DNA of 64,000 bases. Origin: Somniosus microcephalus. Its lineage: Eukaryota. Position numbers and translations under genes: made by a program. This document shows positions 5,242 through 64,000 of this stretch, one piece after another (position 1 is the first letter of the stretch; every line of letters starts with the position of its first letter). The notes beneath the pieces were generated by a model, which ran no database searches, was not told the origin of the DNA, and was given only the letters and a program-made list of their open reading frames with translations. The DNA lies in NCBI GenBank assembly GCA_052327205.1, contig CM126205.1:241862001-241926000 (forward strand). The letters run 5' to 3'.

Positions 5242-5356
5242 GTAAGTATTAAATTTACATCACAGTTTTCTCATCTTTGTTATCGGTAAATTATTCTGTG
5301 AAAATAGACATACTTAAATATAACTATATTATTTTCTTTTCATTTAATTTATACAG

Positions 5357-17300: not shown

Positions 17301-20300
17301 TAGTTTTACCAACATAATTGACACTGAATTTACTATTACTGGATTAACTGAAGATGCAAGATATGAATTTAGAGCAATTGCGAGAAATGCAGCTGGTATT
17401 TTCAGTGAACCATCTGAAAGCACTGGACCAATTACAGCAACAGATGAAATTGAAGCTCCAAGAGCTTCCATGGACCCTAAGTACAAAGATGTAATAGTTG
17501 TTAATGCAGGGGACAGCTTTGTACTGGAGGCTGACATCTATGGTAAACCTGTACCTGATGTAACATGGATCAAAGATGGCAAAGATATTGAAGCAAATGT
17601 TGCCAGAATGGAGACTAAATCTACCATTCAAAAAACTAGTCTGACTGTCAAGGACTGTATACGAATTGATGGAGGACACTATGTACTTAAGCTCAGTAAT
17701 GTAGGTGGAACAAAATCTATTCCAATAACTGTTAAGGTCCTTGATAGGCCTGGTCCTCCTGAAGGTGTTTTGACGGTTTCTGGTGTAACTGCTGAAAAGT
17801 GCTACTTGGCTTGGAACCCACCTTCTCAGGATGGCGGTGCCAATATTTCTCACTACATAATAGAAAAGAGAGAAACTTCCAGACTTTCATGGACACAAGT
17901 AGCACCTAATGTGCAAGCTATTAGTCACAAAGTAACCAAACTTCTTCCGGGTAATGAGTATATATTCCGTGTAATGGCAGTAAACAAATATGGAATTGGT
18001 GAACCACTGGAATCTGAGCCAATTGTGGCTAAAAACCCATTCCATACACCGAGTGCACCAACAGTGCCTGAGGTTACAACTATTACTAAAGACTCTATGG
18101 TTGTGACATGGGGGCACCCTGATGATGATGGCGGAACTGAAATTGAAGGTTATATACTGGAGAAGCGAGACAAAGATGGAGTTAGATGGACAAAGTGCAA
18201 TAAAAAGAGGTTGAGTGATTTAAGGTTTAGAGCTACTGGTTTAACAGAAGGTCATTTCTACGAATTCCGTGTATCTGCTGAAAATGCTGCTGGTGTAGGT
18301 GATCTAAGTGAGCCATCCACTTTCTACAGAGCTTGTGATGTAGTATATGTTCCTGGTCCACCAAACAATCCAAAGGTGGCAGACACAACAAGTTCAACAG
18401 TAGCCCTTGCATGGGGCAAGCCAATTTATGATGGTGGAGCTAAAATTAAGGGTTATACTGTAGAGATGAAAGAAACTAATAGTGATGACTGGATCACATG
18501 CACGCCTCCAACAGGTGTGCAATCAACACATTTCACAGTAGCAGACTTGAAGGAGAATATTGAGTATAACATCCGTATCTGTGCCATTAATTCAGAAGGA
18601 GTAGGAGAACCTGCTAGTGTTTCTGGTACTGTAATTGCAGCTGATAAGCTTGAGCCACCAGAAATTGAGCTAGATGCTAATCTCAGAAAGGTTGTGACTG
18701 TACGTGCTGGTGGTACTTTGAGATTATTTGTTCCTATTAAAGGCAGACCTGAGCCTGAAGTAAAATGGGAAAAAGCTGAAGGTGCTCTAAGTGAGCGAGC
18801 CCAGATTGAAGTTACAAGCTCTTACACCATGTTGGTTGTCGATAATGTTAACAGATTTCACAGTGGCAAGTATAATTTGACTTTGGAAAATAACAGTGGT
18901 ATTAAATCTGCTTTTGTTAACGTCAGAGTACTTGATTCACCAAGTACTCCTGTGAACCTACACATAAAAGAAGTGAAGAAAGATTCAGTGACTATATCAT
19001 GGGAACCACCTCTTATTGATGGTGGTGCAAAAATCACTAATTACATTGTTGAAAAACGTGAGTCTACCAGAAAGGCTTATGCTGCTGTTACCAACAATTG
19101 TACTAAAAACACATTCAAAATTGATTCACTTCAAGAAGGCGGTATTTATTTATTCCGTGTAATGGCAGTCAATGAGTATGGAATAGGCTTGCCAGCAGAG
19201 ACTGCTGAGCCCATTAAAGCATCTGAGATACCCTTACCTCCTGGCAAAGTGACATTGGTAGATATAACACGAAATAGTGCAACACTTACCTGGGAGAAAC
19301 CTGAGTATGATGGAGGTAGCAAAATAACTTCCTACATTGTTGAAATGCAGACGAAAGGAAGTGAAAAATGGATTTCATGTGCTCAAGTAAAAGCACTAGA
19401 GACAACAGTGAAAGGACTAACCACAGGTGAGGAATACACCTTTCGTGTAAAAGCTGTGAATGAGAAAGGAAAGAGTGATCCAAGACAGTTGGGAGTACCA
19501 GTGATTGCAAAAGATGTTGAAATTGAGCCATCTGTTGAGCTTCTTTTCAACAGTTTTAGTGTAAAGGCTGGTGATGACATCAAGATTGATATACCATTTA
19601 GAGGAAGACCTTTGCCAACTGTGACCTGGAAGAAAGATGGCCAGGCTTTGAAACAGACAACACGAATAAATATTCAGACATCAACAACATCAACACTTCT
19701 GAGCATCAAGGAAGCCTTAAAGGAAGATGTTGGAAAATATGAAGTAACTGTTTCCAATAGTACAGGATCAAAAACCTTCTTAATTACCATTATTGTTCTT
19801 GACAAACCTGGACCACCTGGTTCTATTCATATTGATGAAGTCAGTTCTGATAATATAACTATATCTTGGAAGGCACCAGAGTATGATGGTGGCTGCCAAA
19901 TTAACAATTATATTGTTGAAAAGAGAGACACTACTACAACAGCATGGGAAACTGTTTCTGCTACTGTAGCAAGAACATCAATTAAGGTCTCACGTCTTAC
20001 AGCAAAATGCGAATACCAGTTCCGTGTTTATGCAGAAAACCGATATGGCAAGAGCCACTATAGTGAATCTTCTGCTATTGTTGCAGAGTATCCATTTAAA
20101 CCACCTGGTCCTCCTTCAACTCCTATTGTTGCACATGCTACCAAAGGTTATATGATTGTAAAGTGGAACGAACCAGTTATTGATGGAGGTTCCAAAATTG
20201 TTGGGTACCACCTGGAATGCAAAGAAAGAAGCAGTATCTTGTGGACAAAGATGAATCGAGGTCCTATAATTGACACAAAAATGAAAGTAACTGGCCTTGA

Positions 20301-22459
20301 AGAAGGTCTAGTATATGAGTATCGTGTGTATGCCGAGAACATTGCTGGTATTGGTAAAAGCAGTAAGGTTTCTGAAGCTGTTGCAGCAAGGGACCCATGT
20401 GATCATCCAGGTCAACCTGAAGTAACATATATTACCAGAACCTCTGTTTCACTATCTTGGACCAAGCCGGAATATGATGGTGGTGCTAAAGTTACTGGTT
20501 ATATTGTTGAATGCAGGGAGCTACCCGATGGACGCTGGCTTAAGTGTAATTTTACTAACGTCCAAGAAACATATTTTGATGTTACTGGTCTTAATGAAGA
20601 TCAGCGCTATGAGTTCCATGTTATTGCAAAGAATGCTGCAGGTTTATTCAGTGAACCATCTGAATCAACAGGTCCCATTACTGTAAAGGATGATATGGAA
20701 GCCCCAAGAATTATGATGGATGCCAAATTTAAAGAGGTTGTTGCTAGGGCTGGTGACACTGTCAAGGTTAATGCAGATATTGCAGGTCGTCCTCTTCCAG
20801 TGATATCATGGACAAAGGATGGTAAGGAGCTTGAAGGACAAGCTAGAGTTGAAATCCAGTCAACTGACAACAACACTGCAATTGTCATTAAGGACTGTAT
20901 TAGGCGAGACTCAGGGCAATATGTTGTAACATTGCAGAATGTTGCAGGAACAAGATCCCTGGCTATTAACTGCAAGGTACTTGATAGACCAGGTCCACCT
21001 GCTGGTCCTTTGGAAATAACTGGCCGTACCGCAGAAAAGTGTTCACTGTCATGGGCACCACCTCAAGAGAATGGAGGAGCAGAAATTGATCACTATATTG
21101 TAGAAAAGCGTGAAACAAGTCGTATTGCTTGGACCTGTGTAACAACTGACTTACAAACAACATCCTGTAAAGTAACTAAACTGCTTAAAGGCAACGAGTA
21201 TGTTTTCAGAGTGATGGGAGTGAATAAGTATGGCGTTGGTGAAGTTTTAGAAAGTGAACCTGTAAAAGCCATGGATCCATTCACAATTCCCAGTGCACCA
21301 AAATCTATAGAAATTACCAATGTCACAAAGAATACCATGACTATCTGCTGGGAAAGACCTGACAGTGATGGTGGAAATCCAATTGCTGGATACATTATTG
21401 AGAAGCGCGAAAAGAATGGTTTACGCTGGGTTCGAGTTACTAAGAAACCTGTGTATGATCTAAGAGTAAAAGCAACAGGGCTACGTGAAGGTGCTGAATA
21501 TGAATATCGTGTGCAGGCAGAAAATGCTGCCGGTGTTGGTCCTCCAAGTGAATCGTCGGTATTGATCCGTGCAGAAGATCCAGTTTTCATACCTTCTCCT
21601 CCATCCAAACCAAAAATTATTGACTCAGCAAAGACAAGCATTACTGTTGGCTGGAAAAAGCCGCTGTTTGATGGTGGAGCGCCTGTCACTGGATACACTG
21701 TAGAGTATAAAAAGTCTGAAGACACTGAATGGACAACAGCAGTTCAGAATTTGAGAGGCACAGAATATACAGTACTTGGACTTACATCTGGAACAGAGTA
21801 TCTTTTCTGTGTACGATCTATTAACAAAGTTGGTGTTAGTGATCCAAGTGAAATATCTGACCCACAAATTGCAAAAGAAAGAGAAGAGGAGCCTGCATTT
21901 GATCTTGATAATGAAATGCGCAAAACTTTGATTGTCAAGGCTGGAAGTTCCTTTACATTAACTGTACCTTTTAGAGGAAAACCAGTACCCAATATAATGT
22001 GGAGCAAACCTGATGTAGATCTCCGTGCAAGAGGAAGTATTGATACTACTGATTCAAGTACATCTTTAACAATAGAGAAAGCAACAAGAAATGACTGTGG
22101 TAAATACACATTAACATTGCAGAATATATTAGCTACTGCCACACTAACTCTAGTTGTCAAGGTCCTGGATTCCCCTGGACCTCCTGGCACTATTATTGCA
22201 AAAGAAGTTACCAAAGAATCTGTAATGCTAGCCTGGGATGTACCAGAAAATGAAGGTGGTGCTCGTGTGAAGAATTATCATATTGAAAAACGTGAAGCTA
22301 GTAAGAAGGCATGGGTCACTGTAACAAGCAACTGTCAACGTCTTACTTACAAAGTTAGTAACTTACAAGAAGGCAGCATTTACTACTTCCGTGTCCGGGG
22401 AGAAAATGAGTTTGGTGTTGGTGTACCCATTGAGAGCAAGGAGGGTGTTAAAGTGACAG
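5357..22459 (+). CDS. TTN: TTN giant A-band exon (~326; 17,103 nt), C-zone 11-domain super-repeats
   Basis: 5708-aa uninterrupted ORF of Ig/Fn3 domains; atacag|ATGTACC ... GTGACAG|gtaatt. Confidence 0.98.
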
Positions 22460-22859
22460 GTAATTTATCAATTTCTTACAATCTTTTGAACATTTTCATT
22501 AACAGTTATTGAACTATAATACCTAACTATGGGGCATAACCATATTGCATTGATGTTCTAGCGTGTTACATCACAGAATTAACAATAAATCTTTGCATAA
22601 TTTCTTATAGGCCGAGTTAGCAATTTCAGCTGAGCCATTTGTATATGGTTATAAAGAGAAATATGCTATTTCTCAAAAGGTGGGAATGATTAACCTGGGC
22701 AGCTCTCAACTACCTTCTACTTATTTTTACAGTTCATAGGGTTAGAATGGGCCAGCTGCTCTTTTATAGCGGAATGGTGTATGGTATAAGAAAAACAAAA
22801 ATTGAGAATTATTACTTACAAATAAATATGGGTTAGCATATTAATTGCAGTGACACATC

Positions 22860-41211: not shown

Positions 41212-41559
41212 GTAAGAAATGTTGACATTGTTACATTTTGTGTCATGTTATGCCCAATTTTAAGCTCTGTTACGACCCATTAATTAACATAATTGTGATG
41301 TAAAAGAGTGGGAATATTGATGGAGATCAGTGGTGTTCAGTGACTTCCTATAAAGTGCATGATGTACATTTCTAGTCGGGTTTCTGTCAGGCTGAGGAAG
41401 TACCCACCAGAAACTGAATGAAGCTTTAGTACAGTATGATAATATAAAGCTATTTTGAGGCCTTTGCATTGGGAAGACGGTGCCATTACCTTCCCAACTG
41501 CTTATGTAGGCAAAGCCATCTTATCTGGACTTGTGTGAGCCAAAGTCCAGCAGGGAAGC

Positions 41560-43175
41560 TATGACAGAGGGTGGAAGATGGGAGACCGGCCAGCAGAGCA
41601 TTGGAATAGTCAAGTCTAGAGGTAACAAATGCATGGATGAGTGTTTCAGCAGCAAATGGGCTGAGATAGGGGCTGAGATGGGTGATAATTAGAGGTGGAA
41701 GTAGATGGAGAGGATATGGGGTCGGAAGCCCAGCTCAGAGTCAGATAGGACACTGAGGTTATGAATAGTCAAGTTCAGCCTGAGACAGTGACCAGGCGAG
41801 GGATGGAATCGATGGCTAGGGAACGGAGTTTGTAGCGGGGGGCCAAAGATAATACTTCATCTTCCCAATATTTAATTGGAGAAAATTTCGGCTCATCCAG
41901 GATTGGATGCCAGACAATCAGTCTGATTACACAGAGGCAGTGGAGAGATTGAGAGAAGTGGCAGTAAGGTAGAGCTGGGTGTCGGCAGCGTACATGTGGA
42001 AACTTGCGTTGTATTTCTGGATGATGTCACCAAGGAGCAGGATGTAGATGAGAAAAAGAATAAATCCTTAGGAGACTCCAGAGGTAACGATGCGGGAGTG
42101 GGAAGAGAAGCAATTGCAGGAGATTCTCTGGCTACGACTGGATAGGTAGGAATGGAACCAGGCAAGGGCTGTCCCACTCAGCTAGACAACAGAGGAGAGG
42201 AGTTGGAGGAGGATAGCATGGTCAACCATGTCAAAGGCTACAGACAGGTCAAGAAGGATGAGGAGGGAAAGGGTTCCATGATCACAGTCACATAGGATCT
42301 CATTTGTGACTTTGATTAGGGCCGTTTCAGTGCTGTGGCAGGGCAGAAACCTGATTGGAGAGGTACAAATATGGAGTTACAGTAAAGATGGACATGGATA
42401 TGGGAGGTGACAATGTGTTCAAAGACTTTGGAGATGAAAGGGATGTTGGAGATGAAAGGGAGGTTGGAGATGGGGCGGTAGTTTGCAAGGACAGAAGGTA
42501 TTTTGAAGAGAGGGGATTATGGCAGCAAATTTGAAAGGGAGGGCAACAGTACCTGAAGAGAGGTAACCATTTGCAATATCAGCTAGCATGGAGGCCAGAA
42601 AGGGAAGTTGTGTGTCAGCAGCTTGGTGCGAATAGGGTCGAGAGATCAGGAGGTGGATCTCATGGGCAAGATAAGCTCAGAGAGGGCATGAGGGGAGATA
42701 GGTAAGAAACTAGAGAAATATGCAGGTTCAGGCTAGGGCAGGGGGGAAACCTTGGGGGAAGTTTGTCTTAGGGGAAGATATCGAAGCAGCAAAGGCAGCT
42801 GAATAGATGATCTCAATCATCGTGACAAAGAAGTCCATGGGCTCCTCGCATTTGTTGTTGGGGGTGAGGGTGGAGGGGAGCACAGAGAGGGGTTTAAAGA
42901 GCTGGTTTGTAGTGGAGAAAAAAAGCAGGAGGATATCTTTGCATTCCAGGGTGATCCTGGAGTATTGAGCGGTTTTGGCAAAGGAGAGCAGGACCCGATA
43001 GTGCTTGATGTGGTCCAGTCAGATCTAGCGATGAATGGCTAAACAAGTTGTGTGGCATAAACGTTCAAATTTGCATCCCTGGGACGTAAGGGAGTGAAGA
43101 TGGGGGCAGTATCAAGGGAAACGGCCAGGGTGGGAGAGAGTAAGGGTTTTACTGCAGACAAAGGCATCAGAGGTC
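41560..43175 (-). mobile_element. L2-clade LINE ORF2 (RT) fragment, degenerate
   Basis: Minus strand reads FHMYAADTQLYL (decayed YADD) near 41965-42003; purine-rich + strand typical of antisense L2. Confidence 0.82.
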
Positions 43176-43632
43176 TGTTGCTGAACCCCCTTTATCAAGA
43201 TCATTCACCAAGTTCTCATTGAGAAGACCTTCTAATTTCTATGTCCACCCATTGCACAAACAGTCCTCCCTACATATTCACCATTCCCTCAACAAATACA
43301 CCAATATTGACTTCATCTTTGTCTGAACTGCTAAAGATACCATTCCTGTCAGCTGACAAAAACAAGTTGTGGAGGCATACAACTTCAGTGCAAGCAGATT
43401 TTATTATCCTAAGTGTGAGTTGTGTATATTACTATTGTTTGGCATTCCACTTGCATCCCCTTAATTGAGAGCTGAAATTGTCAGAAGGACATACATCATG
43501 TAACAGCATTCAGCCCATAGTGGGTGTGATTTTATAACCATGCATCATACTGGTACAGTAAAACAATGGATTTGTTACGGGGATGCAAGGGAAGGACCAT
43601 TTAGAGGGGGAGGATGCTGCTGCAAAGACTGT

Positions 43633-45414
43633 GGCCATGATTTTGCTGACCTTGGCAGGACCGTGGCAGGCGACGTCGGTGGTGGGTCCCGACCCCACTG
43701 CTGTCTCCATCCCGGCCTCTGAAATGAATTTCCCTAGAGTGGGCTTGTTAAGCCCACCCAGTGCGTTTCATGGCCAATTAGAGGAATCGGGTCTGGTGAC
43801 GTCATTTGATGACGCGTCATCAGCCAGTTTCCTTAAAGGGACCATGGCCAGCTTTATTTTGACATTTGTGCTGTCTGTGTTCTACAGCATTGAGATGCTG
43901 AAAACACTGACAATGACCGCACAGATGCACAGGGCTGCACCCAGGCTCTCCCATGGAGGGAGTCACAGCATGCAGGGAGGTTCTCTTCCCTTCCCACGGG
44001 CGGTAGAGACCTCCCCAGGAGATCAACACAGCCTGGTTCCACATTACACAGGAGGACACAAGCAGGGATGTGCTCAGGAGGACCTGGGTGCAGTGCCACA
44101 AACGTTTCAATGATCTCAGTAGATCACGAAACGTTAGTACAAAGCCACACTCAACCTCATCCTGCTGTGCCTCTCATCACATCCCCATCACTCTGCCTTC
44201 CCTACCCTTCTCCTGCACATCCTTACTCACACCAACTTACCTTGGACCTCCATCCATCCCTCTCTCTATCTATGTTATCACATCCTCATCTCACTCGCCA
44301 CCCCTCCCACTCACCCTCATCCTAGTGCAATCAAACAACACACAAGGGCAGGCACTTGGGTTTTTTATGCAATGTCCATGTAAAGTTTCTGTTAATGTGG
44401 TGTCAAACATTGAAACCTTTATTTTCAACACTTTGCGTTCTTGGACAGATTTGTGTGCACCTTTGGAAGTGGCTTAGTGAGTTGCAATGAATGGTGAGAC
44501 ATAACGGTACCCCCCGCAATATAGATGAGTGTGAAAGGAATGGCTTGGGCATTGTAGGGATGCTTTATGGTGTTGGTGTGGGGTGGTGGCAACCTGGCAC
44601 ATCATGTGGCAGCCATGATGTACAGCGTCAAGTGAAGTAAATCTGGCCATGCTGAGGCCATCACTGGCCTCCCGGACAGCAATGTGGGCGGGTGCTGATG
44701 CCCTCTGTCCTGTGCAGCATCAGTTGATTGCAGAGAAGATTGGTGTTGTTGTTGGTGCTGCTCATGTGCCTGGTGCTGCTGGTGTTAGGGCTGATTGTGG
44801 TGGGATTCTGAGGACCAAGGTGTGAGAGTATAAAGGGCATCCATGCTGATGGAATAGAAGGCAGGTGAAGTAGAGATGACAGAAGCAATCTGTCAATGGT
44901 GAGAGAGGTAATGAGGTCAGACTGGATGGAGACTTGTGTAAAGACTTGCAGCAAGGTGAATCTGTTGTGAAAATGCAGTGAGGAATAGCTTGTGGCTGAG
45001 GGGAGATATCTCTGTAAGGTGGGAGCTTTTACTGTACATTTGAAGCTGTCAACTCAACAGCTGATTCAGTGGCCACTGACCTCCCGCCTCAGCTTGACAG
45101 ACGTGGTCCACGACCAGCGTGGACCCCTTGGGCGAGCTGTCACATGCAGAAGGTGAGCTGAAATTCATTCTTAAGTGGCTCTAAACAAGCCACTAATTAT
45201 CTGAATTGGGTCCCCCACTGTGAACCCGCCACTGCATGCTGGGTCTGCTCAGCGCTGACAGACCCGACATCGGGGAAAGGCGCATGGCGGCAGGTTCACA
45301 GTGGGGTCCCGACCCGCTGGGGAAAAAAACACTTTCCCACCTGACCCACCACCAATCGCGCCCGCTGACGCCGTCCCCCACCTCCTCCCCCCCCACCCCC
45401 GTAAAATCTAGCCT
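43633..45414 (+). mobile_element. Harbinger-derived element with decayed Myb/SANT-like (trihelix) ORF
   Basis: Imperfect TIRs ggccatgattttgc / gtaaaatctagcct, TGT on both flanks; peptides HRAAPRLSH and LRRTWVQCHKRFNDL; second copy at 58221-59353. Confidence 0.75.
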
Positions 45415-49144: not shown

Positions 49145-49352
49145 TAATAGTGGATGTAATTGATCTTGCGGGTAGTGCAAAATGGACGATAGCAAATCAG
49201 CAGCCCGTTTTACGAGCCACCCAATTTTCTTTTTCATCGATTTACTTTTTCATTGAAGTCAATGGAAAAAAATCGGGTGAGGTATAAAATGGGCTGCCGA
49301 ATCGCTATCGTCCGTTTTGCACTACCACCCAAGACCAACTTCACCCCCATTA
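49145..49352. mobile_element. Palindromic MITE (~208 bp fold-back)
   Basis: Arms are reverse complements (ggtagtgcaaaatggacgatagc / gctatcgtccgttttgcactacc; gcagcccgtttta / taaaatgggctgc) with near-central cattgaagtcaatg. Confidence 0.85.
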
Positions 49353-49412
49353 AGTTCACTGTTTTACATTATTTATTTTTAAAACTAAATTTGTTATTCT
49401 TTTTGTTTCTAG

Positions 49413-52400
49413 TTCCTGCCAAAATTCATCTACCCAAACATCTGGAAGGCATGGGTGCAGTTCATGCTCTCCGTGGTGAAATAATAAGCATTAAAATTCC
49501 TTTCTGTGGCAGACCGGATCCTGTAATCACATGGCAGAAGGGGCAAGATCTTATTGATAATAACGGTCACTACCAAGTAATTGTGACCAGATCATTTACA
49601 TCACTTGTGTTCCCTAATGGAGTTGACAGGAAAGATGCTGGTTTCTATGTTGTATGTGCCAAGAACAGATTTGGCATAGATCAACAAACAGTGGAACTGG
49701 ATGTGGCTGATGTGCCTGACATGCCAAGAGGAATTCAAGTCAGTGACATTACACGTGATTCTGTTGTTTTAACATGGAATCCTCCAGCTAATGATGGTGG
49801 AAGCAGAGTAATTAACTATGTTATTGAGAAATGTGCAACAACAGCAGAGATGTGGATACGTGTTGCACAGTCACGTGATACGCATTACACTATTGTGAAC
49901 CTCTTCGGCAAGACTAGCTACCAGTTCCGTGTGATTGCTGAGAACAAGTTTGGCCAGAGCCAGCCGTCAGAGCCAACTGATCCTATAGTCACAAAAGAAG
50001 ATAAGACAAGAGTTCTGAACTATGATGAAGAGGTTGATGAATCGATGGAGATTACCAAATGCAAAGCTACTCATTCTAAAATTAAAGAACTTCACAGTCG
50101 ATACACAATTGCTGAAGAGCTGGGACGTGGACAGTTTAGTATTGTTCATCGTTGTATTGAAAATATCAGTAAGAAGACATACATGGCGAAGTTTGTTAAA
50201 ATAAAGGGTGCTGATCAGGTGCTGGTGAAGAAAGAGATTGACATTCTCAATGTTGCTAGGCACAGGAATATCCTTTGGCTACACGAATCATTTGAGAGCC
50301 TTGAAGAATTAGTCATGATCTTTGAGTTCATTTCGGGCCTTGATATCTTTGAGCGCATTAATACAACTAACTTTGAGCTGAATGAAAGGGAAATTATCAT
50401 CTACACTCGCCAGATCTGTGAAGCACTTGAGTTTCTACACAGTCAGAATATAGGCCATTTTGATATCAGACCAGAGAATATAATCTACAGCACAAGAAAG
50501 AGCTCTGTTCTTAAGATTATTGAATTTGGGCAGGCCAGACAACTCAAACCTGGTGACAATATTAGAATCCAGTTCACTGCTGCAGAGTATGGCGCACCTG
50601 AATTGCATCAGCATGATATGGTCAATGCAGCTACCGATATGTGGTCAGTAGGTGCACTTGTGTATGTACTTCTTAGCGGTCTGAATCCATTTGTCGCTGA
50701 AACAAACCAACAGATTATTGAAAACATTATTCAAGCAGAATACAGCTTTGAGGATGAAGCTTTCCAAGATGTCACCACTGAAGCTCTAGACTTCATTGAC
50801 CGCCTTTTGGTCAAAGAAAGGAAGGCTCGGATGACAGCTGCTGATGCTCTTGAACATCCTTGGTTGAAACAGAAGACAGAAAAAATGAGCACCAAAGTGA
50901 TTAAGACTTTGAGACACAGAAGATACTATCAGACCATAGTCAAGAAAGAATTGAATGTTGTTGTTTCTGTTGCTCGAATTTCTTCTGGTGGAGCTGTTAG
51001 AACGCAAAGAGGAGTTACAGTTGCTAAAGTTAAGATATCTCCAATTGAAATTGGTCCACTTACTGGACAAATTATGCATGCTTCTGCTGAAGAAGGTGGC
51101 CATGTTAAATATTCCTGCAAGATAGAAAATTATGATCAATCTACCCAAGTAACTTGGTACTTTGGTGTCAGGCAACTGGAATGCAGTGACAAATATGAAA
51201 TTAACTACCAGGATGGTTTGGCAACAATGTATGTTAAAGACATAAATAAGACAGATGATGGTACTTACAGATGCAAAGTAGTAAATGACTATGGTGAAGA
51301 TAGCTCCTACGTAGAACTGTTTGTGAGTGGTGTCAGAGAAATTCGTAAATTCTATATGGAACGTACTGTAAAGAAAGTAAAACGTAAAGTGGATGCTATG
51401 AGGCTACTTGAGAGGCCACCAGAGTTTACTTTGCCTTTGTACAAGCGTTCTGCATATATTGGAGAAGATGTCAGATTTGGTGTTACTATAACAGTTCACC
51501 CTGAACCCCGAGTAACTTGGTTGAAATCTGGACAGAAGATCAAACCTGGTGAAGATGAGAAAAAATATACTTTTATGTCTGACAAAGGCCTCTATCAACT
51601 GATCATCCACAACCTAACAACCGATGATGATGCTGAGTACACAGTACTAGCTCGCAATAAATATGGTGAGGACAGCTGCAAAGCCAAATTAACAGTATTA
51701 CCTCACCCACCTGCAGCAGACAGCACTTTAAGACCAATGTTTAAGCGTTTGTTGGCAAATGCAGAATGCGTGGAAGGCCAAAGCATTCGTTTCGAATGTC
51801 GGGTGTCTGGCACACTGCCATCTGCACTGAAATGGGAGAAAGATGGACAGGCTTTGGCATTCAGTCCAAATATTGAATTTGTCCATGAAGGTCTAGACTA
51901 CTATGTTTTGCACATAAGGGATACTTTTCCAGAGGATTCTGGCATCTACAGAATCACTGCTACCAACAGTGCTGGATCTGCGAGCTGCCAAGCCTATCTA
52001 AAAGTTGAACGCATGACCTACGTCAAGCGTCGGTACAAGAGTGAGGAGGAACGGCAACAACATGTTCAGAAACAAATTGACAAAACAATCAGAATGGCTG
52101 AAATTCTTGCAAATGTTGAAGCAGTTCCACTGACAGCAGTGGCAAAGGAAGCTCTGCGAGAAGCTGCAATAATGTACAAACCAGCTATCAGCACCAAGAA
52201 TGTAAAAGGTGAATATGAAATTTCAAAGGTAGAAAAGAAAAAGGAAGAAAAGAGACTTCGTATGCCTTATGATATTCCAGAACCCCGTGTGCACGCAGCA
52301 AATGCAATTGAAGAGAATCAAGATATCAAACAGTTTGTGCCTTTGTCTGACATGAAGTGGTACAGGAAACTGCGAGACCATTATGAAATGCCAGCACCAA

Positions 52401-55288
52401 TGGAGAGAATTGTAACAAAACGACCAAAACGAATCCGTCTCTCAAGATGGGAGCAGTTCTATGTCATGCCTTTGCCACGCTTTACTGACCAGTATAGACC
52501 AAAATGGCGCATACCAAAAGTGTCGCAAGATGATCTTGAAACAGTTAGACCAGCTCGAAGGCGCACACCATCTCCTGAGTATGAAATATGTTACAGACCA
52601 AGAAGGAGATCACTTGGTGATTTGTCAGATGACGAATTACTCCTCCCTGTTGATGATTACCTTTCAATGAAGAGAATAGAAGAGGAAAGACTACGCCTTG
52701 AGGAAGAGCTTGTATTAGGATTCTCTGCTTCACCTCCAAGTCGCAGCCCTCCACGTTTTGAGTTATCAGCGCTTCAGCATAAATCTCAACGGACACAGTT
52801 AGCTACAGCGGAAGAGGAGGAAAAATATGTCAAATACCAAAAATATCACATCCCTTCCAAATATGAAGCTGGCCCAAGTTTCATAGACCTCCGGCAGCGT
52901 CATGACAAGGCTGTTTATAGAGCGCCAAGACAAAGAATGATAGAAGACAGAGAAGATGAAGAGCTGCTTCGACCAATTGCTACAGTCCAGAGATTGTCTG
53001 CCTACCAAAAAGAACTTGAGCATATGGAACATGAGGAAAAAACAAGGATCAAAAGTAGACGAGAAAGAGAGATTTTAGCGATAAAATCAGCAGAAGAAGA
53101 GCAAACCATCGAAGTTAAGGAATATGTTCGCAGAGAATCTCCATCTGTCTCGAGGCTTCTTAGAAGAAGAAGATCACTTTCCCCAACTTACATTGAATTG
53201 ATGCGACCTGTATCTGAACTAATCAGATCCCGACCATGCCCTACAGAATTTGAAAGTGAAGGCTTAGAAAGACGGTCACCCACACCAGAGAGAACTCGTC
53301 CTCGTTCACCCAGTCCTGTATCTCGAGAGAGCTCACTTTCACGCATTGAAAGGACTGCTAGGTTTGACATCTTTTCACGCTATGAATCAATGAAAACTGC
53401 TCTAAAAACTCAGAAGACTTCCGAAGGAAAATATGAAGTTATTACTCAGCAGCCTTTCAGCCTTGACCATGGTCCACGTATAACTTTGAGAATGCGTTCT
53501 CACCGCATCCCTTGTGGTCAAAGTACCAAATTTACTCTAAATGTTCTGTCCAAGCCAAGAGCTGAAATTAGTTGGTACCACAATGGTAGAGAAATTCAAG
53601 AGAGCAACAAGTATCACTTTACAGATATGAGTGGTGTCCTGACACTGGAAATTCTGGATTGCCAAGCTGAAGATAGTGGAACCTATCGTGTTGTTAGTTC
53701 TAATTACAAAGGAGAGGCCTCTGATTATGCAACACTTGATATTACGGGAGGTGACTATTTTACCTACCTATCTCGCCGTAAAGATGAGGAGCGACCAAAA
53801 TCACTTGTACCTGAACTGACAAGGACTGATTTTTACCAGATCTCTACAGTCAGAAAAACAACAGAAATTGAAGAGATTAGTAAGATGGAAGAAACTAAAA
53901 CAAAAGAGTCAGAAGTAATGGAATCAATCAGCTCTGGCCTGTATGCTTCAAAAGAAAAATCAATTCGAGCATCCAAGCGAAGTCTCCCAGCCAAAATACT
54001 AACAAAACCACAGTCAGTCACAGTAGTAGAGGGAGAATCTGTTAGATTTACCTGTGGCATTGACGGTGAACCAACACCCACTGTGACATGGATGCATTCT
54101 GGGAGAACAATTACATCCTCCAAACGTTTGCTTATTATAGCAACACAGTATAAATCTACCTTTACAATTACATCAGTTCACTCTTCTGATGAAGGCAGCT
54201 ATACAGTAGTAGTAGAAAACTCCGAAGGAAGACAAGAAGCACACTTTACTCTGACTATCCGAAAAGCTGGAGCAAAGGAACTAGGTATTGTAGCAACACC
54301 AATGGTAAAGTCTCCTGAACCTCATGCAAAGTCTTCAGAGGCAAAGAAGACTCCCAAGAGAGTCAAATCACCAGAGCCAGTCACTTCTCTTCCAAGAGTT
54401 AAATCACCCCCAACTCTCAGAACACCTTCAGCAGAACGAGTGGAGATTCCTGCAAGTGCTCCACCTAAGATTTCTCAAGGATTGAAAACTGAAGTTTCTG
54501 AAGATGGTACAGTAAAACTGACATGTGCAGTTGAAAGTACAGTTCTGAATGTGAAAGAATTGGCTTGGTTCAAAGATGGACGTAAAATAAAGGAAAACAG
54601 TCACTACAGATTGGAATATGCTGCTAATGGTGTCTACAACCTCAGTATCCATGGAATTAATGAAACGGACGAAGGAGAATACACTTGTGAAATCACTGGT
54701 GAAGGAGGTGTTTCCAAAACAACTTTTTCCTTTGTTGGTCAAGTATTCAAAAGCATTGTCGCCAAAGTGGCCAAGATAACTGAATCAAAGGCAGCTCTTC
54801 AGAAAAAAGCTGTGGCTAAATCACATGGAAAAACAGAGGTAGTTCAGGAACACATTGTGAAAAAAGAGCTTAAAACATCATACACAGAAATTACGGCCAC
54901 ACGTGTACAAATGACTGCAGTAGATGGTCAGAAGGCCATACTTAAGGCCAACATACCAAATGCTTCCAATGTGAAATGGATCTCAAATGGTGTGGAGCTT
55001 ATCAATTCAGAAGATTATCGATATGGTGTATCTGGAAATGACCACACTTTAACCATCAAAAAGATCAGTTTCAGAGATGAAGGCGCAATCACCTGTGAAG
55101 CGAAAACTGAGCATGGAATAGTTAAATGTCAATTTGATTTAACAGTTAAACAAAAACAATCAAATACTCCAACATTCATTGCACAACCCAAGTCCCAAAA
55201 TGTTAATGAAGGACAAAATGTGGCATTTACTTGTGAAATATCAGGAGATCCTTCTCCAGAGGTTGAATGGCTGAAAGACAACAATCCT
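49413..55288 (+). CDS. TTN: TTN M-line exon (Mex1 fused with Mex3 equivalent; 5876 nt): A169, A170, kinase, M1-M6, M8, N-half of M9
   Basis: tctag|TTCCTGCC ... AATCCT|gtaagt; continuous ORF with recognisable domains and is2-is4 inserts. Confidence 0.95.
50102..50866 (+). other. TTN: Titin (pseudo)kinase domain
   Basis: GRGQFS loop, YMAK, HFDIRPEN, EFG in place of DFG, APE, DMWS, HPWL; preceded by NYD linker and followed by regulatory tail. Confidence 0.97.
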
Positions 55289-55399
55289 GTAAGTACTTTA
55301 TTAATTTAAGCTTGCTGCTCGTTTATCTGGTTCTCCAAATAAAATAATTTTAGCGTGTTCTTTGGCTTATAATCAAAGGAAACTTGTTTCATATTTCAG

Positions 55400-55553
55400 A
55401 TTGCAATCTCAAGAAATGTGAAAGTGAATCGTTTGAAAAACAAGTACACACTAGAAATTCTGAATGCAGCAGCCTCTGACAGTGGAAAATATACAGCAAC
55501 AGCAAAGAATTTCCATGGACAGTGTTCTGCAACAGCCTCTTTAATTGTACTTG
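55400..55553 (+). CDS. TTN: TTN Mex4 equivalent (154 nt), C-half of Ig M9; not in ORF track
   Basis: ttcag|ATTGCAATC ... DSGKYTATAKNFHGQCSATASL ... CTTG|gtatgt. Confidence 0.94.
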
Positions 55554-55897
55554 GTATGTTATTGCCTTAAATTAATTATTGCACTTGTTATTATGACCGT
55601 TGCATTTTCTGTGCCCCCCATTTACTATAGCATTTTATTGAACCTGAACTTGAGTTTCTTCAGTACAATGTAGAACAAAAGTCTGGCAATTAATTGAATA
55701 ATTTTAACATATAAATGTATGTTTTTACAATTTAAACTAGATGCAAATGTTTTAATGTTTTCTTTGGTCTATTAGCACATGGTGTATGATACACTCAAGT
55801 AGGACTCACATTTTGATCTTTAAAAAATGATTTTACCTTTGCAGTATGTCAAAAGTGAGTCCATTTATGTATCACATCTGTTTGCTATGCTCCACAG

Positions 55898-56158
55898 CTC
55901 TAATTGAAGAACCTTCAAAAATGGTAGTTCTGGAGACTGGTGCTTCTGCTGGCATGCAGGAATATTTCTCTTCCAAGATAATGCAAATGACCAAACAAGA
56001 GGCCAGCAGCAGCATGACTGAAGTTAAATTTGCCAGCATGTCTTCGAGTAGCATGTCATCTTTCAAAGAATCAATGAGCTCCAGCTCTTTTATGGAGCAT
56101 TCCAGTATGAGTCAATTGGAAGCAAGTACCAGCAAAATGATTACTGGTAGTATTAAAG
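55898..56158 (+). CDS. TTN: TTN Mex5 equivalent (261 nt), Ser/Met-rich is7
   Basis: cacag|CTCTAATT (ALIEEPS...SSMTEVKFASMS) ... TAAAG|gtgata; symmetric phase 1. Confidence 0.92.
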
Positions 56159-56271
56159 GTGATATTGAGTCATTACTAAAGCATTAAAAAATATAATTTT
56201 TTTTCTATTAATCCAGTTGTATCAATATGCTGGGCAAGAAACTAACTTGTCTATTGTATTTTTTTTTACAG

Positions 56272-56570
56272 GGTCTTCTCCTAAAATTGAAGCTTTACCA
56301 TCAGATATCACCATTGAGAAAGGAAAGGTTCTAACAGTGGCCTGTGCCTTCTCAGGTGATCCTATGCCTGAAGTAAAATGGTCACGTGGAGGAAGACCTC
56401 TTTCTGATGAAGCAGAAGGTGGCAGATTCCACATTGAAACAACAGATGATCTAACAACACTCATTATCACAGGTGTCAAAGAAAATGATGCAGGACGCTA
56501 CACTCTAAGACTCACAAATGAATTTGGATCAGATTCTGCCACTGTAAATATTAAAATTAGATCAATTTAA
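56272..56570 (+). CDS. TTN: TTN Mex6 coding part, Ig M10 and stop
   Basis: tacag|GGTCTTC; PKIEALPSDI...GRFHIETTDDLTTLII...NEFGSDSATVNIKIRSI TAA. Confidence 0.97.
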
Positions 56571-57748: not shown

Positions 57749-57804
57749 AAAGTAATTCACAAAGAAATTCAGTTCACATAAATTTAGAAGTTGTAAACAT
57801 GAAA

Positions 57805-58222
57805 ATGTCTGGGACTTTTTTGAGGTTATGAACGTGGTAGATAAGGGAGTGTCTAGGGATGTTATTTATAAGGACTTCTGGAAGGCATTCAGTAAGATTC
57901 TACACAAGCGACAGTTAGCAAAAGTGGAAGCACATGGAATTGGAGGCAATCTATTGACATGGGTAGGAAATTGGTTAGGAGGTAGGAGACAGAGAGTAGG
58001 GATAATGGGTATGTGCTCCAATTGGCAGGATGTGACTAATGGTGTCCCCCAGGGATCTATACCTGGGCCTCAGCTTTTCACTATATTTATCAATCAAGTT
58101 TGCTGATGACACTAAGTTAGGTGGCACAGTAAGTAGAGTAGATGGGAGCTGAGGGCTGCAAAGGGACATTGATAGATTGAGTGGGCAAAACTGTGGCAGA
58201 CGGAGTTCAATGTGGGGAAGTG
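57805..58222 (+). mobile_element. CR1-type LINE, RT segment 1 of a fragmented copy
   Basis: DVIYKDFWKAFSK, VPQGSIPGPQLF, KFADDTKLGG. Confidence 0.88.
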
Positions 58223-59353
58223 TCAACCCGCCGCCACGTGCCTTTCCCAAATGTCGGGTCTACCAGCGCTCAGCAGAGTGAGATGGGGAAGTGAAAATGT
58301 AGATTTTTTAAAATTAGTTTATGGGATGTGGGCGTCGCTGGCAAGGCCAGCATTTATTGCCCATCCCTAATTGCCATTGAGAAGGTGGTGGTTAGCTGCC
58401 TTCTTGAACCGCTGCAATCCATGTGGTGCAGGTACTCCCACAGTGCTGTTAGGTAGGGAGTTCCAGGATTTTGACCCAGCAACGATGAAGGATCGGCAAT
58501 ATATTTCCAATTCAGGATGGTGTGTGACTTGGAGGGGAACTTGGTGGTGTTCCCATGCACCTGCTGTCCTTGACCTTCTAGGTGGGAGAGGTCGCGGGTT
58601 TGGGAGGTGCTGCCGAAGAAGCCTTGGTGAGTTGCTGCAGTGCACCTTCTAGATGGTACACACTGCAGCCACGGTATGCCGGTGGTGGAGGGAGTAAATG
58701 TTGAAGGTGGTGGATGGGGTGCCAGATTGACGGGGATGGGTGGAGATGCAAGGTAAGTTGGTGTAAGGATGTGCAGGACTAGGGTAGGGAAGGCAGAGTG
58801 ATGGGGATGTGATGAGTGGCACAGCAGGATGAGGTTGAGTGTGGCTTTGTAGTAATGTTTTGTGATCTATTGAGATCATTGAAAGGTTTGTGCTACTGCA
58901 GCCTGGTCCTCCTGACAACATCCCTGCTTGTGTCCTCCTGTGCAATGTGCAACCAGGCTGCGTTGGTCTCTTGGGGAGGTCTCTTCCGCCTATTGGAAGG
59001 GAAGAAAACCTCCCTGCGTGCTGTGACTCCCTCCATAAGCATATGGAGGGAGTCATGGGAGAGCCTGGGTGCAGCCGTGCACCTTTGTGCAGTGCTTGTC
59101 AGTGTTCGCAGCACCTCAATGCTGTAGAACACTGACAGCACAAATGTCAAAATCAATTTGCGCATGGTCCCTTTAAGGAAACCGGCTGATGATATGTCAT
59201 CAAATGACATCATCAGACCCGTTTCCTTCAATTGGCTGGCAAACGCGCTGGGCGGGCTTAACAAGCCCAATAAAGGGAAAGTCATTTTGGACAGCAGGCT
59301 GGAGCCACCGACGTTGCTCGCCATGGACCGCCAAGGTTGGTAAAATCCAGCCC
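58221..59353 (-). mobile_element. Second, inverted and deleted copy of the Harbinger-derived Myb/SANT element
   Basis: Reverse complement of 43633-44250 and 45240-45300; terminus gtaaaatccagcccc; APRLSHDSLHMLMEGVTARREVFF...AAWLHIAQE. Confidence 0.8.
58305..58725 (-). mobile_element. 3' end of a CR1/L2-group LINE inserted in the Harbinger-like copy
   Basis: SFIVAGSKSWNSLPNS...LQRFKKAANHHLL followed by tail gggatgggcaataaatgctggccttgccagcgacgcccacatccc and A-rich end. Confidence 0.8.
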
Positions 59354-59689
59354 CATGTCTTCGGAAGGATATACTGGCTTTGGAGTGGCTACAGCGCAGA
59401 TTCACCAGAATAATACACGGGCCAATTATGAGGATATGTTGCATCGAATAGGCTTGTATTCCCTTGATTATTAAAGGATTTAATAAGGTAGATAGAAACT
59501 ATTTCCTTTGGTGGGGGAATCCAGAACAAGGGGGCATAGCCTAAAATTAGAGCTAGGCCATGCGGGGGTGATGTCAGGAAGCACTGCTTCACACAAAAGG
59601 TAGTGGAAATGTAGAACTTTACCTCAAAAAGCTGTTGAGGCTGGGGGTCAATTACAAATTTCAAAACTGAGATTGATAGATTTTTGTTA
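59354..59689 (+). mobile_element. CR1-type LINE, segment 2 of fragmented + copy
   Basis: RKDILALEWLQRRFTRII, ESRTRGHSLKIR, HCFTQKVVE. Confidence 0.85.
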
Positions 59690-60620
59690 CATAATTACAC
59701 AGTACATAGTGCATAGAATTTACAGCACAGAAATAGACCTTTCAGCCCCACAGATCCATGCCAGTGTTTATGCTCCACATATGCCTCCTCCCACCCTTCT
59801 TCATCTAACCCCATCAATGTCTCCCATTCCTTTTCCCTCATGTATTTATCTAGCTTTCCCTTAAATGCATCTATGCTATTCACCTCAACTACTCCTTGTG
59901 GTAGCGAGTTCCACATTCTAACCATTCTCTGGTTAAAGAAGTTTCTCCTGAATTCCCTATAGGATTTATTAGTGACTATCTTATAGTTATGGCCCCTCAT
60001 TCTAGTCTCCCCCACAAGTGGAAACATCTTCTCTACATCTACCCTATCAAACCCTTTCATAATCTTAAAGACCTCTATCAGGTCACCCCTGAGTCATCTC
60101 TTTTCTAGAGAAAAGAGCCCCAGCCTGTTCAATCTTTCCTGATAGGTATAACCTCTCAGTTCTGGTATCATCCTAGTAAATCTTTTTTGCACCTTCTCCC
60201 GTGCCTCTATATCCTTTTTATAATATGGAGACCAGAACTGTTCACAGTATTCCAAGTGTGATCTAACCAAGGTTCTTTGCAAGTTTAACATAACTTATCT
60301 GCTTTTCAATTCTATCCCTCTGGAAACAAACCCCAGTGCTTTGTTTGCTTTTTTTTTATAACCTTATCAACCTGCATTGCTATTTTTAGTGATTTGTCTA
60401 TCTGTACCCCCAGATCCCTCTGCTCCTCTACCCCATTTAGACCCTTATTTTCCAAGGAGCATGTGGCCTCCTTATTCTTCCTACCAAAATGCATCAACAC
60501 ACACTTATCTATATTGAAGTTCATTTGCCAGTTACATGCCCATTTTGCAAGTTTATTGATGTCTTCCTGTATTCTGTCACAGTCTTCCTCTATATTAACT
60601 ATACCCCCCAATTTGGTGTC
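59690..60620 (-). mobile_element. CR1-type LINE, 5'-truncated, inverted, with 3' tail
   Basis: ORFs 60312-60611, 60094-60291 and 59695-60060 give the consecutive CR1 ORF2 C-terminus (WQMNFN, HLEYCEQFWSP, FFNQRMVRMWNSLP). Confidence 0.92.
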
Positions 60621-60755
60621 AGTAAAGTTATTAAGGAATATGGAACCAAGGGGGGGGGGTAAGTGGAGTTGAGATACACGTCAGCCATAATCTAACTGAA
60701 TGGTGGAACAGTCTCAAGGGGCTGAATGGCCTATACCTGTTCCGATGTTCTTATG
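60621..60755 (+). mobile_element. CR1-type LINE 3' tail, segment 3 of fragmented + copy
   Basis: ttaaggaatatgg...ggggctgaatggcctatacctgttcc continues the sequence broken at 59689. Confidence 0.8.
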
Positions 60756-61530
60756 ACTCAATTCCACGGCCACATACTACAGTTGCTACAAAATAACCTA
60801 TTGAACATAAATTACATAAAAGTAAAACATTTACTTGGGTGGGGTATTAATGATTGGCTCCAACTTAAATCTGCAGATTTATTATTTGGGATTCCTCCAG
60901 GGTATTCCTACTTCTGAGAAGTTACAGCTGAGTCCTAGGCTGCACACAATTCCACAGATAAGAATGAGCAGGGTACCTGTTATCAGGCCTCTATCTACAT
61001 AGATCAAATCATCACAAACATTGTTGAGTGGTTACTTTAGACATTCCACCATCGTCCTTATATGCAGAGATGCTCGAACCTTGCATTCCCTTATACAGTG
61101 CAGAACTTACAAACCCTATGTTCAGCAGAAAGTTTTTTCACTCATCTTTGGATCTTACAGGCAATACAGGACATTGAGGTACTCGGGTAGTGTGGAACCT
61201 CGTTCCCACAACTGACATCTCATAATCGGGAACTGTCATAGGAACATCCAAAAATGACGGGCAGGAAATATCAACTGATCCATCAAGCCTGCCCCACTCT
61301 GATGATGCCTGGAGCATGACTAAACACTTCCTACTCACCCTTCACCCCCCTCCCCGACCCTGCCATCTTCTGGGAGGTACATTACCTTAAAACAGAACCA
61401 GGTGAATCCTTTATCCCTTCACCTTAACTCTTCGTCAAACAACCATCTGGGGATTTACCATCCACTTCTGTGGAATTATTAGATGTCTAAAGAAAGAACT
61501 TGCATTTATATAGTGCCTTTCACAACCTCA

Positions 61531-62278
61531 TTGAAACTTATAAAATTCTATCAGGACTAGACAGACTAGATGCAGGAACGATGTTCCCAATGGCGGGGGA
61601 GTCCAGAACCAGGGGTCACAGTCCAAGGATAAGGGGTAAGCCATTTAGGACTGAGATGAGGAATTTCTTCACCCACAGAGTGGTGAACCTGTAGAATTCT
61701 CTACCACAGAAGGCAGTTGAGGCCAATTCATTAAATATATTCAAGAAGGAGTTAGATATATTTCTTACGGCTAAAGGGATCAAGACCTGGGACTAGGGAC
61801 AGGGTCACTGGCAAGGCTTGGAAGCTAAGCAGAGCCAGGACCTGGTTAGTACCTGGAGGAGTGACCATCAGGGAAGACCAGGTGCAGAAGGTCACAGGAA
61901 GGAGCCCCGAGGAGGGGCGGTTGGTGAGAAGGTCACGGAAGGAGCTCCGGGAGGGGCAGCTGGTGAGCAGGCCCGGGCGTTGGGCTGAAGATTGTCGGAC
62001 AGGAGGAATGGTGGAAATGGAATGGCGGCGCGCACAGACGCAGCGGCTTTGCTTCTCCCAGGACGGTGCTATTTACGTTTAATGTTAATGTTATTTGTAC
62101 TGGACTCATGGGAGCTTGCAAGATCACATTTCGTTGTACAATGACAATAAAGTTGAATTATTATTAGATGGGGAGAAGGCAGGGATAGGGTACTGAATTT
62201 GGATGATCAGCCATGATCTCATTGAATGGCGGAGCGGGGCCGAATGGCCTTCTCCTGCTCCTATCTTCTATGTTTCTC
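61531..62278 (+). mobile_element. CR1-type LINE 3' fragment (61531-61784 and 62167-62278)
   Basis: IETYKILSGLDRLDAGTMFP...FFTHRVVNL; tail ggccgaatggccttctcctgctcctatcttctatg. Confidence 0.85.
61785..62166 (+). mobile_element. Insertion inside the CR1 fragment, Rex1/Babar-like 3' end
   Basis: Interrupts CR1 between gggatcaag and gatggggagaagg; ends tttcgttgtacaatgacaataaagttgaa(tta)n. Confidence 0.55.
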
Positions 62279-62684
62279 GGGTGTCCCAATGAAGTACTTT
62301 TGAAGTGTAGAAACTGTTGTACTGTAGGAAACATGGTCACCATTTTGTGCACAGCAAGCTTTCACAAACAACATGATAATCACCAGATAATCCGTTTTAG
62401 CAATGTTGGTTGAGGGATAAATATTGGCCAGGATACCAGGGAGAACTCCACTGCTCTTCTTCAAAATAGTGCCATGGGATCTTTTATGTCCTCCTGAGAG
62501 GGCAGACGGGGCCTCGGCTTAATGTCTCATATGAAAGACATCACCTCCAGCATTCAGTCCTGTACTGGACTGTCAGCCTAGATTTTGTGCTCAAGGCTCT
62601 GGAGTGGGACTCAAACCACAACCTCAGGTGCAAGAGTGCTAACAACTGAGCCACAGCTGACAGGAAGTCATTTTACAAAAGGTT

Positions 62685-64000
62685 ACATAAAAACATTAGA
62701 AATAGGAGCAGGAGCAGGCCATTCGGCCCCTCGAGCCTGCTACGCCATTTAATGAGATCATGGCTGATCCGATTTTGGCGTCAACTCCACTTTCCTGCCT
62801 GCTCCCCATAACCCTTGACTCCCCTGTTGCTCAAAAATCTGTCTATCTCAGCCTTGAATATATTCAATGACTCAGCTTCCACAGCGCTCTGGGATAAAGA
62901 ATTCCAAAGATTCACGACCCTCTGAGAAAAGAAATTCCTCATCTCCATCTTAAACGGGCGACCCCTTATTCTGAGACTCTGCCCCCTCGTTCTAGATTCC
63001 CTGATGAAGGGAAACATCCTCTCAGCATCTACCTTGTCCAACCCCCTCAGAGTCTTATATGTTTCAATAAGGTCACCTCTCATTCTTCTAAACTCCAATG
63101 AGTATAGTCCAACCTGCTCAACCTTTCCTCATAAGACAACCCTGCCATCTTAGGAATCAACCTAGTGAACCTTCTCGGAACTGCCTCCAATGCAAGTATA
63201 TCCCTCCTTAAATAAGGGGACCAAAACTGTACGCAGTACTCTAGGTGTGATCTCACCAGCGCCCTGTACAGTTGTAGCAAGACTACCCTGCTTTTATACT
63301 CTATCCCCTTTGAAACAAAGGCCAACATTCCATTTGCCTTCCTAATTACTTGCTGCACCTGCATGTTAACTTTTTGTGTTTCCTGCACGAGGACACCCAA
63401 ATCCCTCTGTACTGCTGCATTCTGTAGTCTTTCTCCATTTAAATATTTTTCTTTTCTATTCTTCCTACCAAAGTGGATAACTTCACATTTTCCCACATTA
63501 TACTCCATCTGCCAAATTCTTGCCCATTCACTTAACCTATCTATATCCCTTTGCAGACTTTTTATGTCCTCCTCGCAACTTGCTTTCCCACCTATCTTTG
63601 TATTGTTTGCCAATTTGGTTACAATACACCCGCTTCCTTCATCCAAGTCATTAATATGGATTAAAAATAGTTGAGGCCCCAGCACTGATCCCTGTGGCAC
63701 CCCACTAGTTACAGATTGCTATCCTGAAAATGACCCATTTATCCTGACTGTTTTCTGTTAGTTAGCCAACCCCCAACACCATGAGCTCTTATCTTATGCA
63801 GTAACCTTTTATGTGGCACCTTGTCAATTGCCTTTTGGAAATCCAAATACACTGCATCTACTGGTTCCCCTTTATCCACCTTGCTCGTTACCTCCTCAAA
63901 GAACTCTAATAGATTTGTCAAACACGATTTCCCTCTGTTTGATTGTATTATGATTTTCTAAATGCCCTGCTACTATTTCCTTAATCATGGATTCGAGCAT
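62685..64000 (-). mobile_element. CR1-type LINE, relatively young, continuing beyond window
   Basis: 206-aa RT ORF (PQGSVLGPQLF, WQMEYNVGKC, HLEYCVQFWSP), LDFQKAIDKVPH upstream, intact 3' tail near 62690-62800. Confidence 0.95.

Follow-up and report, generated by a model that had tools for sequence, protein, structure and literature searches.

The M-band end of mammalian titin is described as ten immunoglobulin (Ig) domains, M1-M10, carried on the exons Mex1-Mex6 (PMC6922384, accessible text), and ten domains are the plan usually given for vertebrates. The same source lists PDB entry 3puc as titin M7; it places partner sites in the M3-M4 linker, the M5-M6 linker, M9 and M10, names obscurin/Obsl1, calpain 3 and FHL2 among the M-band partners, and gives no partner for M7 in its introduction. 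According to the legend of its Fig 1A, the titin entries of salmon and zebrafish are without M7, M8 and M9, so that a missing M7 is already on record for these two fishes. Among cartilaginous fishes, elephant shark connectin has been described as a single gene whose M-band is 61% similar to that of human and whose A-band domain structure is "almost identical"; the accessible text gives no M-band domain count, and neither "M-band" nor "M-line" occurs in the text of the supplement (PMC12241362). The accessible portions of PMC12198301, PMC7912658 and bioRxiv 10.1101/2025.08.04.668337 hold nothing on M7, and a search that reached little of the subscription literature returned no paper describing that sharks, frogs or sauropsids have lost M7, or that its loss was repeated.

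The window analysed here, a 64,000-nucleotide stretch of the 6.4 Gb genome of Somniosus microcephalus (contig CM126205.1 of assembly GCA_052327205.1), covers the 3' end of the titin gene. The open reading frame scan finds a forward frame open from 49193 to 55306, and joining four M-line exons with AG/GT ends (Table 1) yields 2195 residues with the terminal stop only. The first of these exons encodes the end of the A-band, the titin kinase, M1-M6, a linker, M8 and the first half of M9; its 5' end is from sequence only, RNA reads having been placed from 53900 onward. A kinase followed by ordered Ig domains that end in M10 identifies the gene as a vertebrate titin (TTN), with nine Ig domains in its M-band. 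In a tree of 69 domains over 95 columns, whose forks inside groups are weak, M4-M10 each form one group, and M4, M5, M6, M8, M9 and M10 of Somniosus fall within their own numbered clades with support ranging from 89/86 (M6) to 100/99; M1-M3 were assigned by identity only. Pfam I-set matches lie at 54452-54760 and 54890-55153. The linker names is4-is7, and the domains given for Mex2-Mex5, follow general usage.

Table 1. The M-line end of the Somniosus titin gene, in window positions.
Feature	Position	Strand	Basis
Fused M-line exon (Mex1 + Mex3 equivalent)	49413..55288	+	Open frame; AG/GT ends; 5' end from sequence only
Ig M5	53987..54265	+	PDB "titin module M5", 120 bits; M5 clade 98/96
Ig M6	54461..54742	+	Pfam I-set; M6 clade 89/86; 57% to rodent M6 vs 37% to rodent M7
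Retained first 22 codons of M6-M7 linker (is5); predicted alpha-helix	54743..54808	+	Collinear with bonefish linker 1-22
Approximate fusion point	54808..54809	+	In the alignment with bonefish P0219, linker residue 22 is followed by 132
Retained end of M7-M8 linker (is6); predicted disordered	54809..54889	+	Aligns to bonefish linker from 132 on
Ig M8	54890..55153	+	Pfam I-set; M8 clade 100/99; single genome match
First half of Ig M9	55169..55288	+	Translation; domain tree
111-nt intron inside M9	55289..55399	+	721 spliced reads
154-nt exon (Mex4 equivalent), second half of M9	55400..55553	+	RNA joints; translation
344-nt intron	55554..55897	+	350 spliced reads
261-nt exon (Mex5 equivalent), serine-rich is7	55898..56158	+	RNA joints; translation
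113-nt intron	56159..56271	+	383 spliced reads
Coding part of last exon (Mex6 equivalent), Ig M10 and stop	56272..56570	+	RNA; translation; M10 clade 100/99

Other features of the window include a 5734-codon open frame of Ig/Fn3 repeats at 5308-22509, the giant A-band exon, and an M5-M6 linker (54266-54460) with three KSP motifs in 66 residues, as opposed to the long KSP arrays of bonefish P0219 and the teleost-like open reading frame (ORF) P0117 (P numbers denote stored protein records). Intronic and downstream frames at 1587-2211, 41489-44474 and 57756-63718 resemble what we take to be pieces of LINE reverse transcriptase, and two similar frames near 43562-44474 and 58652-59498 are presumably transposon-like.

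Transcription across the M6-M8 junction was read from X22, another study's RNA run of unstated tissue with 37,092 placed reads. Depth was 1155 and 1064 in the two bins covering 54708-54909, or about 1100-fold at the junction, and splice joints fell only at the three short introns, as predicted for the M-line exons, with the 3' end of the fused exon joined from 55288 to 55400. Among the loose read ends listed there was no joint between 53900 and 55288 and no indel over the junction. A second run, X21, placed 14 reads, none of them over the junction. Contigs of X1 and X3, which may be the source data of the assembly itself, cover the stretch in one piece, and the junction DNA has one match in the genome. 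The earlier sequence-only reading, which had fused Mex1 directly to Mex3 on a titin with four M-line exons and had named muscle RNA and long reads as the check on assembly collapse, is thus borne out by a single exon, three joints, continuous RNA and unbroken contigs. The X22 depth also peaks at about 7000 over 54203-54409, where 3187 molecules start at 54409, which is probably library bias. The Mex5 exon is alternatively spliced in mammals; no joint skipping its equivalent (55553 to 56272) was listed in this one run, in which the flanking joints have 350 and 383 reads.

M7 is absent from this transcribed gene. The stretch from M6 to M8 (54743-54889) returned no Pfam domain from two linker queries, and no domain of the window falls in the M7 clade (98/98), whose members come from a hagfish, five teleosts and one rodent. 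When the halves of four M7 sequences were compared with 54743-56272 they matched the M9 halves only, at 19-29 bits, where true orthologue halves score 38-78 bits against each other; the three downstream introns have longest stop-free stretches of 31, 39 and 34 codons in the three forward frames. Genome-wide, a teleost M7 query met generic Ig domains only, the best of 85 matches scoring 47.9 bits at 33% identity (150 of 715 candidates scored) against about 116 bits for a true M7-to-M7 comparison, and an M8 query found one match and no second titin M-band among the 150 of 468 candidates scored. Neither the M7 of the mammalian-type plan, with ten Ig domains on six exons, nor the introns inside and after it are present between M6 and M8. 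The claims that M7 is missing, that the downstream introns hold no Ig-coding sequence and that the result is a shorter, nine-Ig M-band therefore all stand, and the linker, put at about 50 residues, measures 45-55 depending on where the M8 boundary is set.

Compared with the M7-bearing form, the missing segment amounts to about 109 residues, namely the end of is5, the whole of M7 and the start of is6, together with at least two introns. The Somniosus linker aligns to residues 1-22 and 132-178 of the bonefish linker with a score of 100.9 against a maximum of 37.9 in 200 shuffles, which locates the fusion point to within a few codons. An unnamed, 85%-identical cluster (P0002/P0206/P0207) is also without M7 and has the same 66-residue linker; as the length is identical, the loss is older than the split from this relative, and a close relative with M7, which could have pointed to assembly collapse, was not what the comparison returned. 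AlphaFold2, run with a 17-row alignment, modelled M6, a helix at P0001 residues 96-121 that is confident only at its start, a low-confidence stretch (pLDDT <50 at residues 118-148, the end of the M7-M8 linker) and M8. The predicted helix directly after M6 is conserved (window 54737-54814) and recalls the Ig-helix modules of myomesin.

The domain itself appears to be old. A hagfish record (P0064, Eptatretus burgeri) reads M5-M7-M8-M9, and its M7 lies within the M7 clade, nested among teleost M7s with weak support; its identity is 55% with bonefish M7 and no more than 34% with any other M domain, in a gene model that is without M4 and M6, has a partial M10 and is the sole outgroup. Bonefish P0219 and P0009, whose cluster has mouse and hamster names, carry M6, M7 and M8, and so the bony-vertebrate ancestor had both M6 and M7; the extra Ig of P0009 matches PDB 3puc at 149 bits. 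M7 is also present in Dallia, Fundulus, Electrophorus and Menidia records. All 16 genomic-type ORFs examined that bear M7 (seven mammal-like and nine teleost-like, by likeness) stop at the same spot inside it, which agrees with the earlier statement that M7 is split by an intron where present and points to an intron shared by the two groups. Sequence comparison thus shows an orthologous M7 in hagfish, teleost and rodent records; a gain in bony vertebrates, one of the two options of the earlier reading, is not supported, though this rests on one imperfect hagfish model. A mammalian gain is ruled out by M7 in teleosts and hagfish. An origin by recent duplication of the split M9 is not supported either, M7-M9 identity being only 22-29%, no higher than to M4, M6 or M10. 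Measured from the core tryptophan, the intron inside M7 and that inside M9 (window 55289) are separated by about one codon. That the hagfish model contains M7 and not M6 may reflect a jawed-vertebrate addition of M6, a hagfish loss or a model error.

By set cut-offs, 78 of the 308 stored proteins were titin M5-M9 fragments, and these counts mirror database sampling and not species frequency. M6 is joined to M8 in 39 of them, of which one is that of the window, 20 are named and 18 unnamed; 24 carry the whole or the first half of M7, and neither arrangement is seen in 15. Loss, the other option of the earlier reading, had the right polarity; it is not peculiar to this lineage, as 38 fragments besides the window's own show the M6-M8 join. 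The named records are gene models, which could skip exons, and comprise 15 birds (P0186 being a shortened model), gecko, cobra, turtle, toad and arowana; P0025 and P0006 fall in bird and frog clusters. The genomic-type ORFs are unnamed and were assigned by cluster names or likeness: 15 of the 17 unnamed M7-less ORFs examined look genomic because they run into the M9 intron, the other two being spliced frog-cluster products, and the genomic-type ORFs show the same intron-free M6-M8 fusion as the window. Among the tetrapods sampled, M7 is kept only by mammals, in a set with no chimaera, ray, coelacanth, lungfish, gar, salamander, crocodilian, monotreme or lamprey record. A search of 50% clusters with P0009 was dominated by giant multi-Ig proteins, and nine of its 149 new matches were titin M-band fragments. 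Teleost records vary in their M5-M9 content (P0015, P0016-18, P0023, P0028, P0232, P0235, P0237), some having M7 without M6, some neither and some missing M6-M8 altogether, and P0237 (Menidia) passes from M7 to M9 without M8.

The 5' break lies near linker residue 17-23 after M6 in Somniosus, frogs and sauropsids alike; the 3' joins differ. The window resumes at bonefish linker residue 132, 10 residues past the end of bonefish M7, turtle, bird and gecko titins retain the start of is6, and frogs resume far later, joining at rodent residue 233. Arowana still has about 12 residues of a degenerate M7, P0016-18 are broken within the domain and are also without M6, and P0023 is without M6-M8. These breakpoints were placed on protein sequence within linkers that evolve fast, and for gecko and bird the alignment moves with the reference. 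A kinase-M3 tree of 16 rows follows the species tree: mammals group with sauropsids and frogs (92/95), and the window and the P0002/P0206/P0207 cluster branch outside teleosts and tetrapods. The AU test rejects a single M7-less clade that unites the shark-like rows with those of frogs and sauropsids, with p-AU no lower than 0.029 under the simpler LG+G4 model and with two long branches. The tree needs four changes in M7 state, and two tetrapod losses equal in count one loss plus a mammalian regain, although regain of an orthologous domain together with its intron seems unlikely. Neither a common breakpoint nor a common clade thus unites the loss in Somniosus with that of frogs and sauropsids, and on these sequences the likeness of their M7-less titins would be convergent. 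Differing breakpoints and the rejection of one M7-less clade make repeated in-frame deletion the likeliest course.

We therefore consider it probable that an in-frame genomic deletion removed M7 and two introns in one step, and that frogs, the reptile-bird group and some teleost copies independently underwent similar deletions. In Somniosus the M6-M7 linker now continues in frame into the M7-M8 linker within a single transcribed exon, and as both breakpoints appear to lie in low-complexity linkers, the reading frame and the flanking domains would have survived. The clustering of the 5' break at residue 17-23 is likely explained by a need for the predicted helix after M6. Against the bonefish form, the resulting protein would be shortened by some 110 residues and would retain the kinase, the linkers M3-M4 and M5-M6, and the domains M9 and M10; judging from the partner sites listed above, M7 is likely a dispensable spacer.

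Another route to the same structure, which we regard as unlikely, starts from an ancestral, frame-preserving M7 cassette of two exons, with lineages fixing the skipped isoform either by loss of the cassette and then of the intron or by conversion with reverse-transcribed mRNA. In P0117 the resemblance to bonefish ends 20 residues after M6, at a donor-like place, the 5' breaks of Somniosus, frogs and sauropsids at residue 17-23 lie near this apparent intron site, and sauropsids resume within a few residues of the start of the mammal-like Mex3 ORF P0099. At the protein level, however, the joins of the window and of the frogs are not exon-exact, given where they resume, nor do mammal-like ORFs show an intron separating M6 from M7. 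In arowana and P0016-18 the break falls within the domain, and the predicted helix accounts equally well for the shared 5' position. It is correspondingly doubtful that early vertebrates had M7 as an alternatively spliced cassette of two exons, fixed as skipped by sharks, frogs and sauropsids each independently and constitutive, among the sampled tetrapods, in mammals alone; if true, a splice isoform would have been fixed repeatedly in the genome at the most conserved end of titin.

Hidden paralogy, in which sharks, frogs and sauropsids retained an old M7-less titin copy, mammals and teleosts an M7-bearing one, and M7 was lost once, would find a precedent in the two adjacent zebrafish titin genes (PMC7912658, accessible text) and in the differing M6/M7 content of teleost records. 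It is highly improbable in view of the grouping of mammals with sauropsids and frogs (92/95), the rejection of one M7-less clade, the differing joins and the single M8 match among the genome candidates scored. Very improbable too is a gain of M7 in bony vertebrates, with the nine-domain state of Somniosus ancestral: the window and its 85%-identical relative do share their M7-less linker and branch outside teleosts and tetrapods, but the hagfish has an M7 recognisably like that of bonefish, and each half of the window's linker can be aligned with one flank of M7. That a collapse or mis-join of the assembly removed M7 is scarcely credible, since, although X1 and X3 may be the assembly's own source, there is no positive sign of it, independent RNA crosses the junction unbroken, the relative has the same linker length and no M7 orthologue appears among the genome candidates scored.

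Repeated deletion of a domain as old as vertebrates suggests that M7 is likely a spacer rather than a binding hub, and the records suggest that nine-domain M-bands are common. A clean in-frame M7 deletion is accordingly predicted to be mild in mammals, which bears on human variants and exon-skipping ideas. For titin evolution this is a small correction, and the shark case is ordinary beside other lineages.

Among known titins, the M7-less proteins of birds, squamates, turtle and frogs (the P0005, P0007, P0008, P0011, P0014, P0025 and P0006 clusters) come close to the Somniosus arrangement, with M6 and M8 in one exon and a short linker, of 63-81 residues, that opens with the conserved post-M6 segment. 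They differ in their 3' join, sauropsids keeping the start of is6 and frogs less, and do not group with the window as a single clade. Teleost titins (bonefish P0219, Dallia P0028, arowana P0013, P0016-18 and P0023) vary in Ig content from M5 to M9 and lack M7 in some cases; unlike Somniosus, some keep M7 without M6, some lack both and P0023 lacks M6-M8, and in the salmon and zebrafish entries M7, M8 and M9 are missing together and not M7 alone (PMC6922384, accessible text). With the mammalian M-band (PMC6922384, accessible text; P0009), Somniosus shares the kinase, M1-M6 and M8-M10, the KSP linker, the serine-rich is7, the intron inside M9 and the last three exons, and its M5, M6, M8, M9 and M10 are 56-70% identical to their mammalian counterparts; it differs in having no M7, in a spacing of 66 rather than 274 residues between the same anchors in M6 and M8, and in having four M-line exons rather than six.
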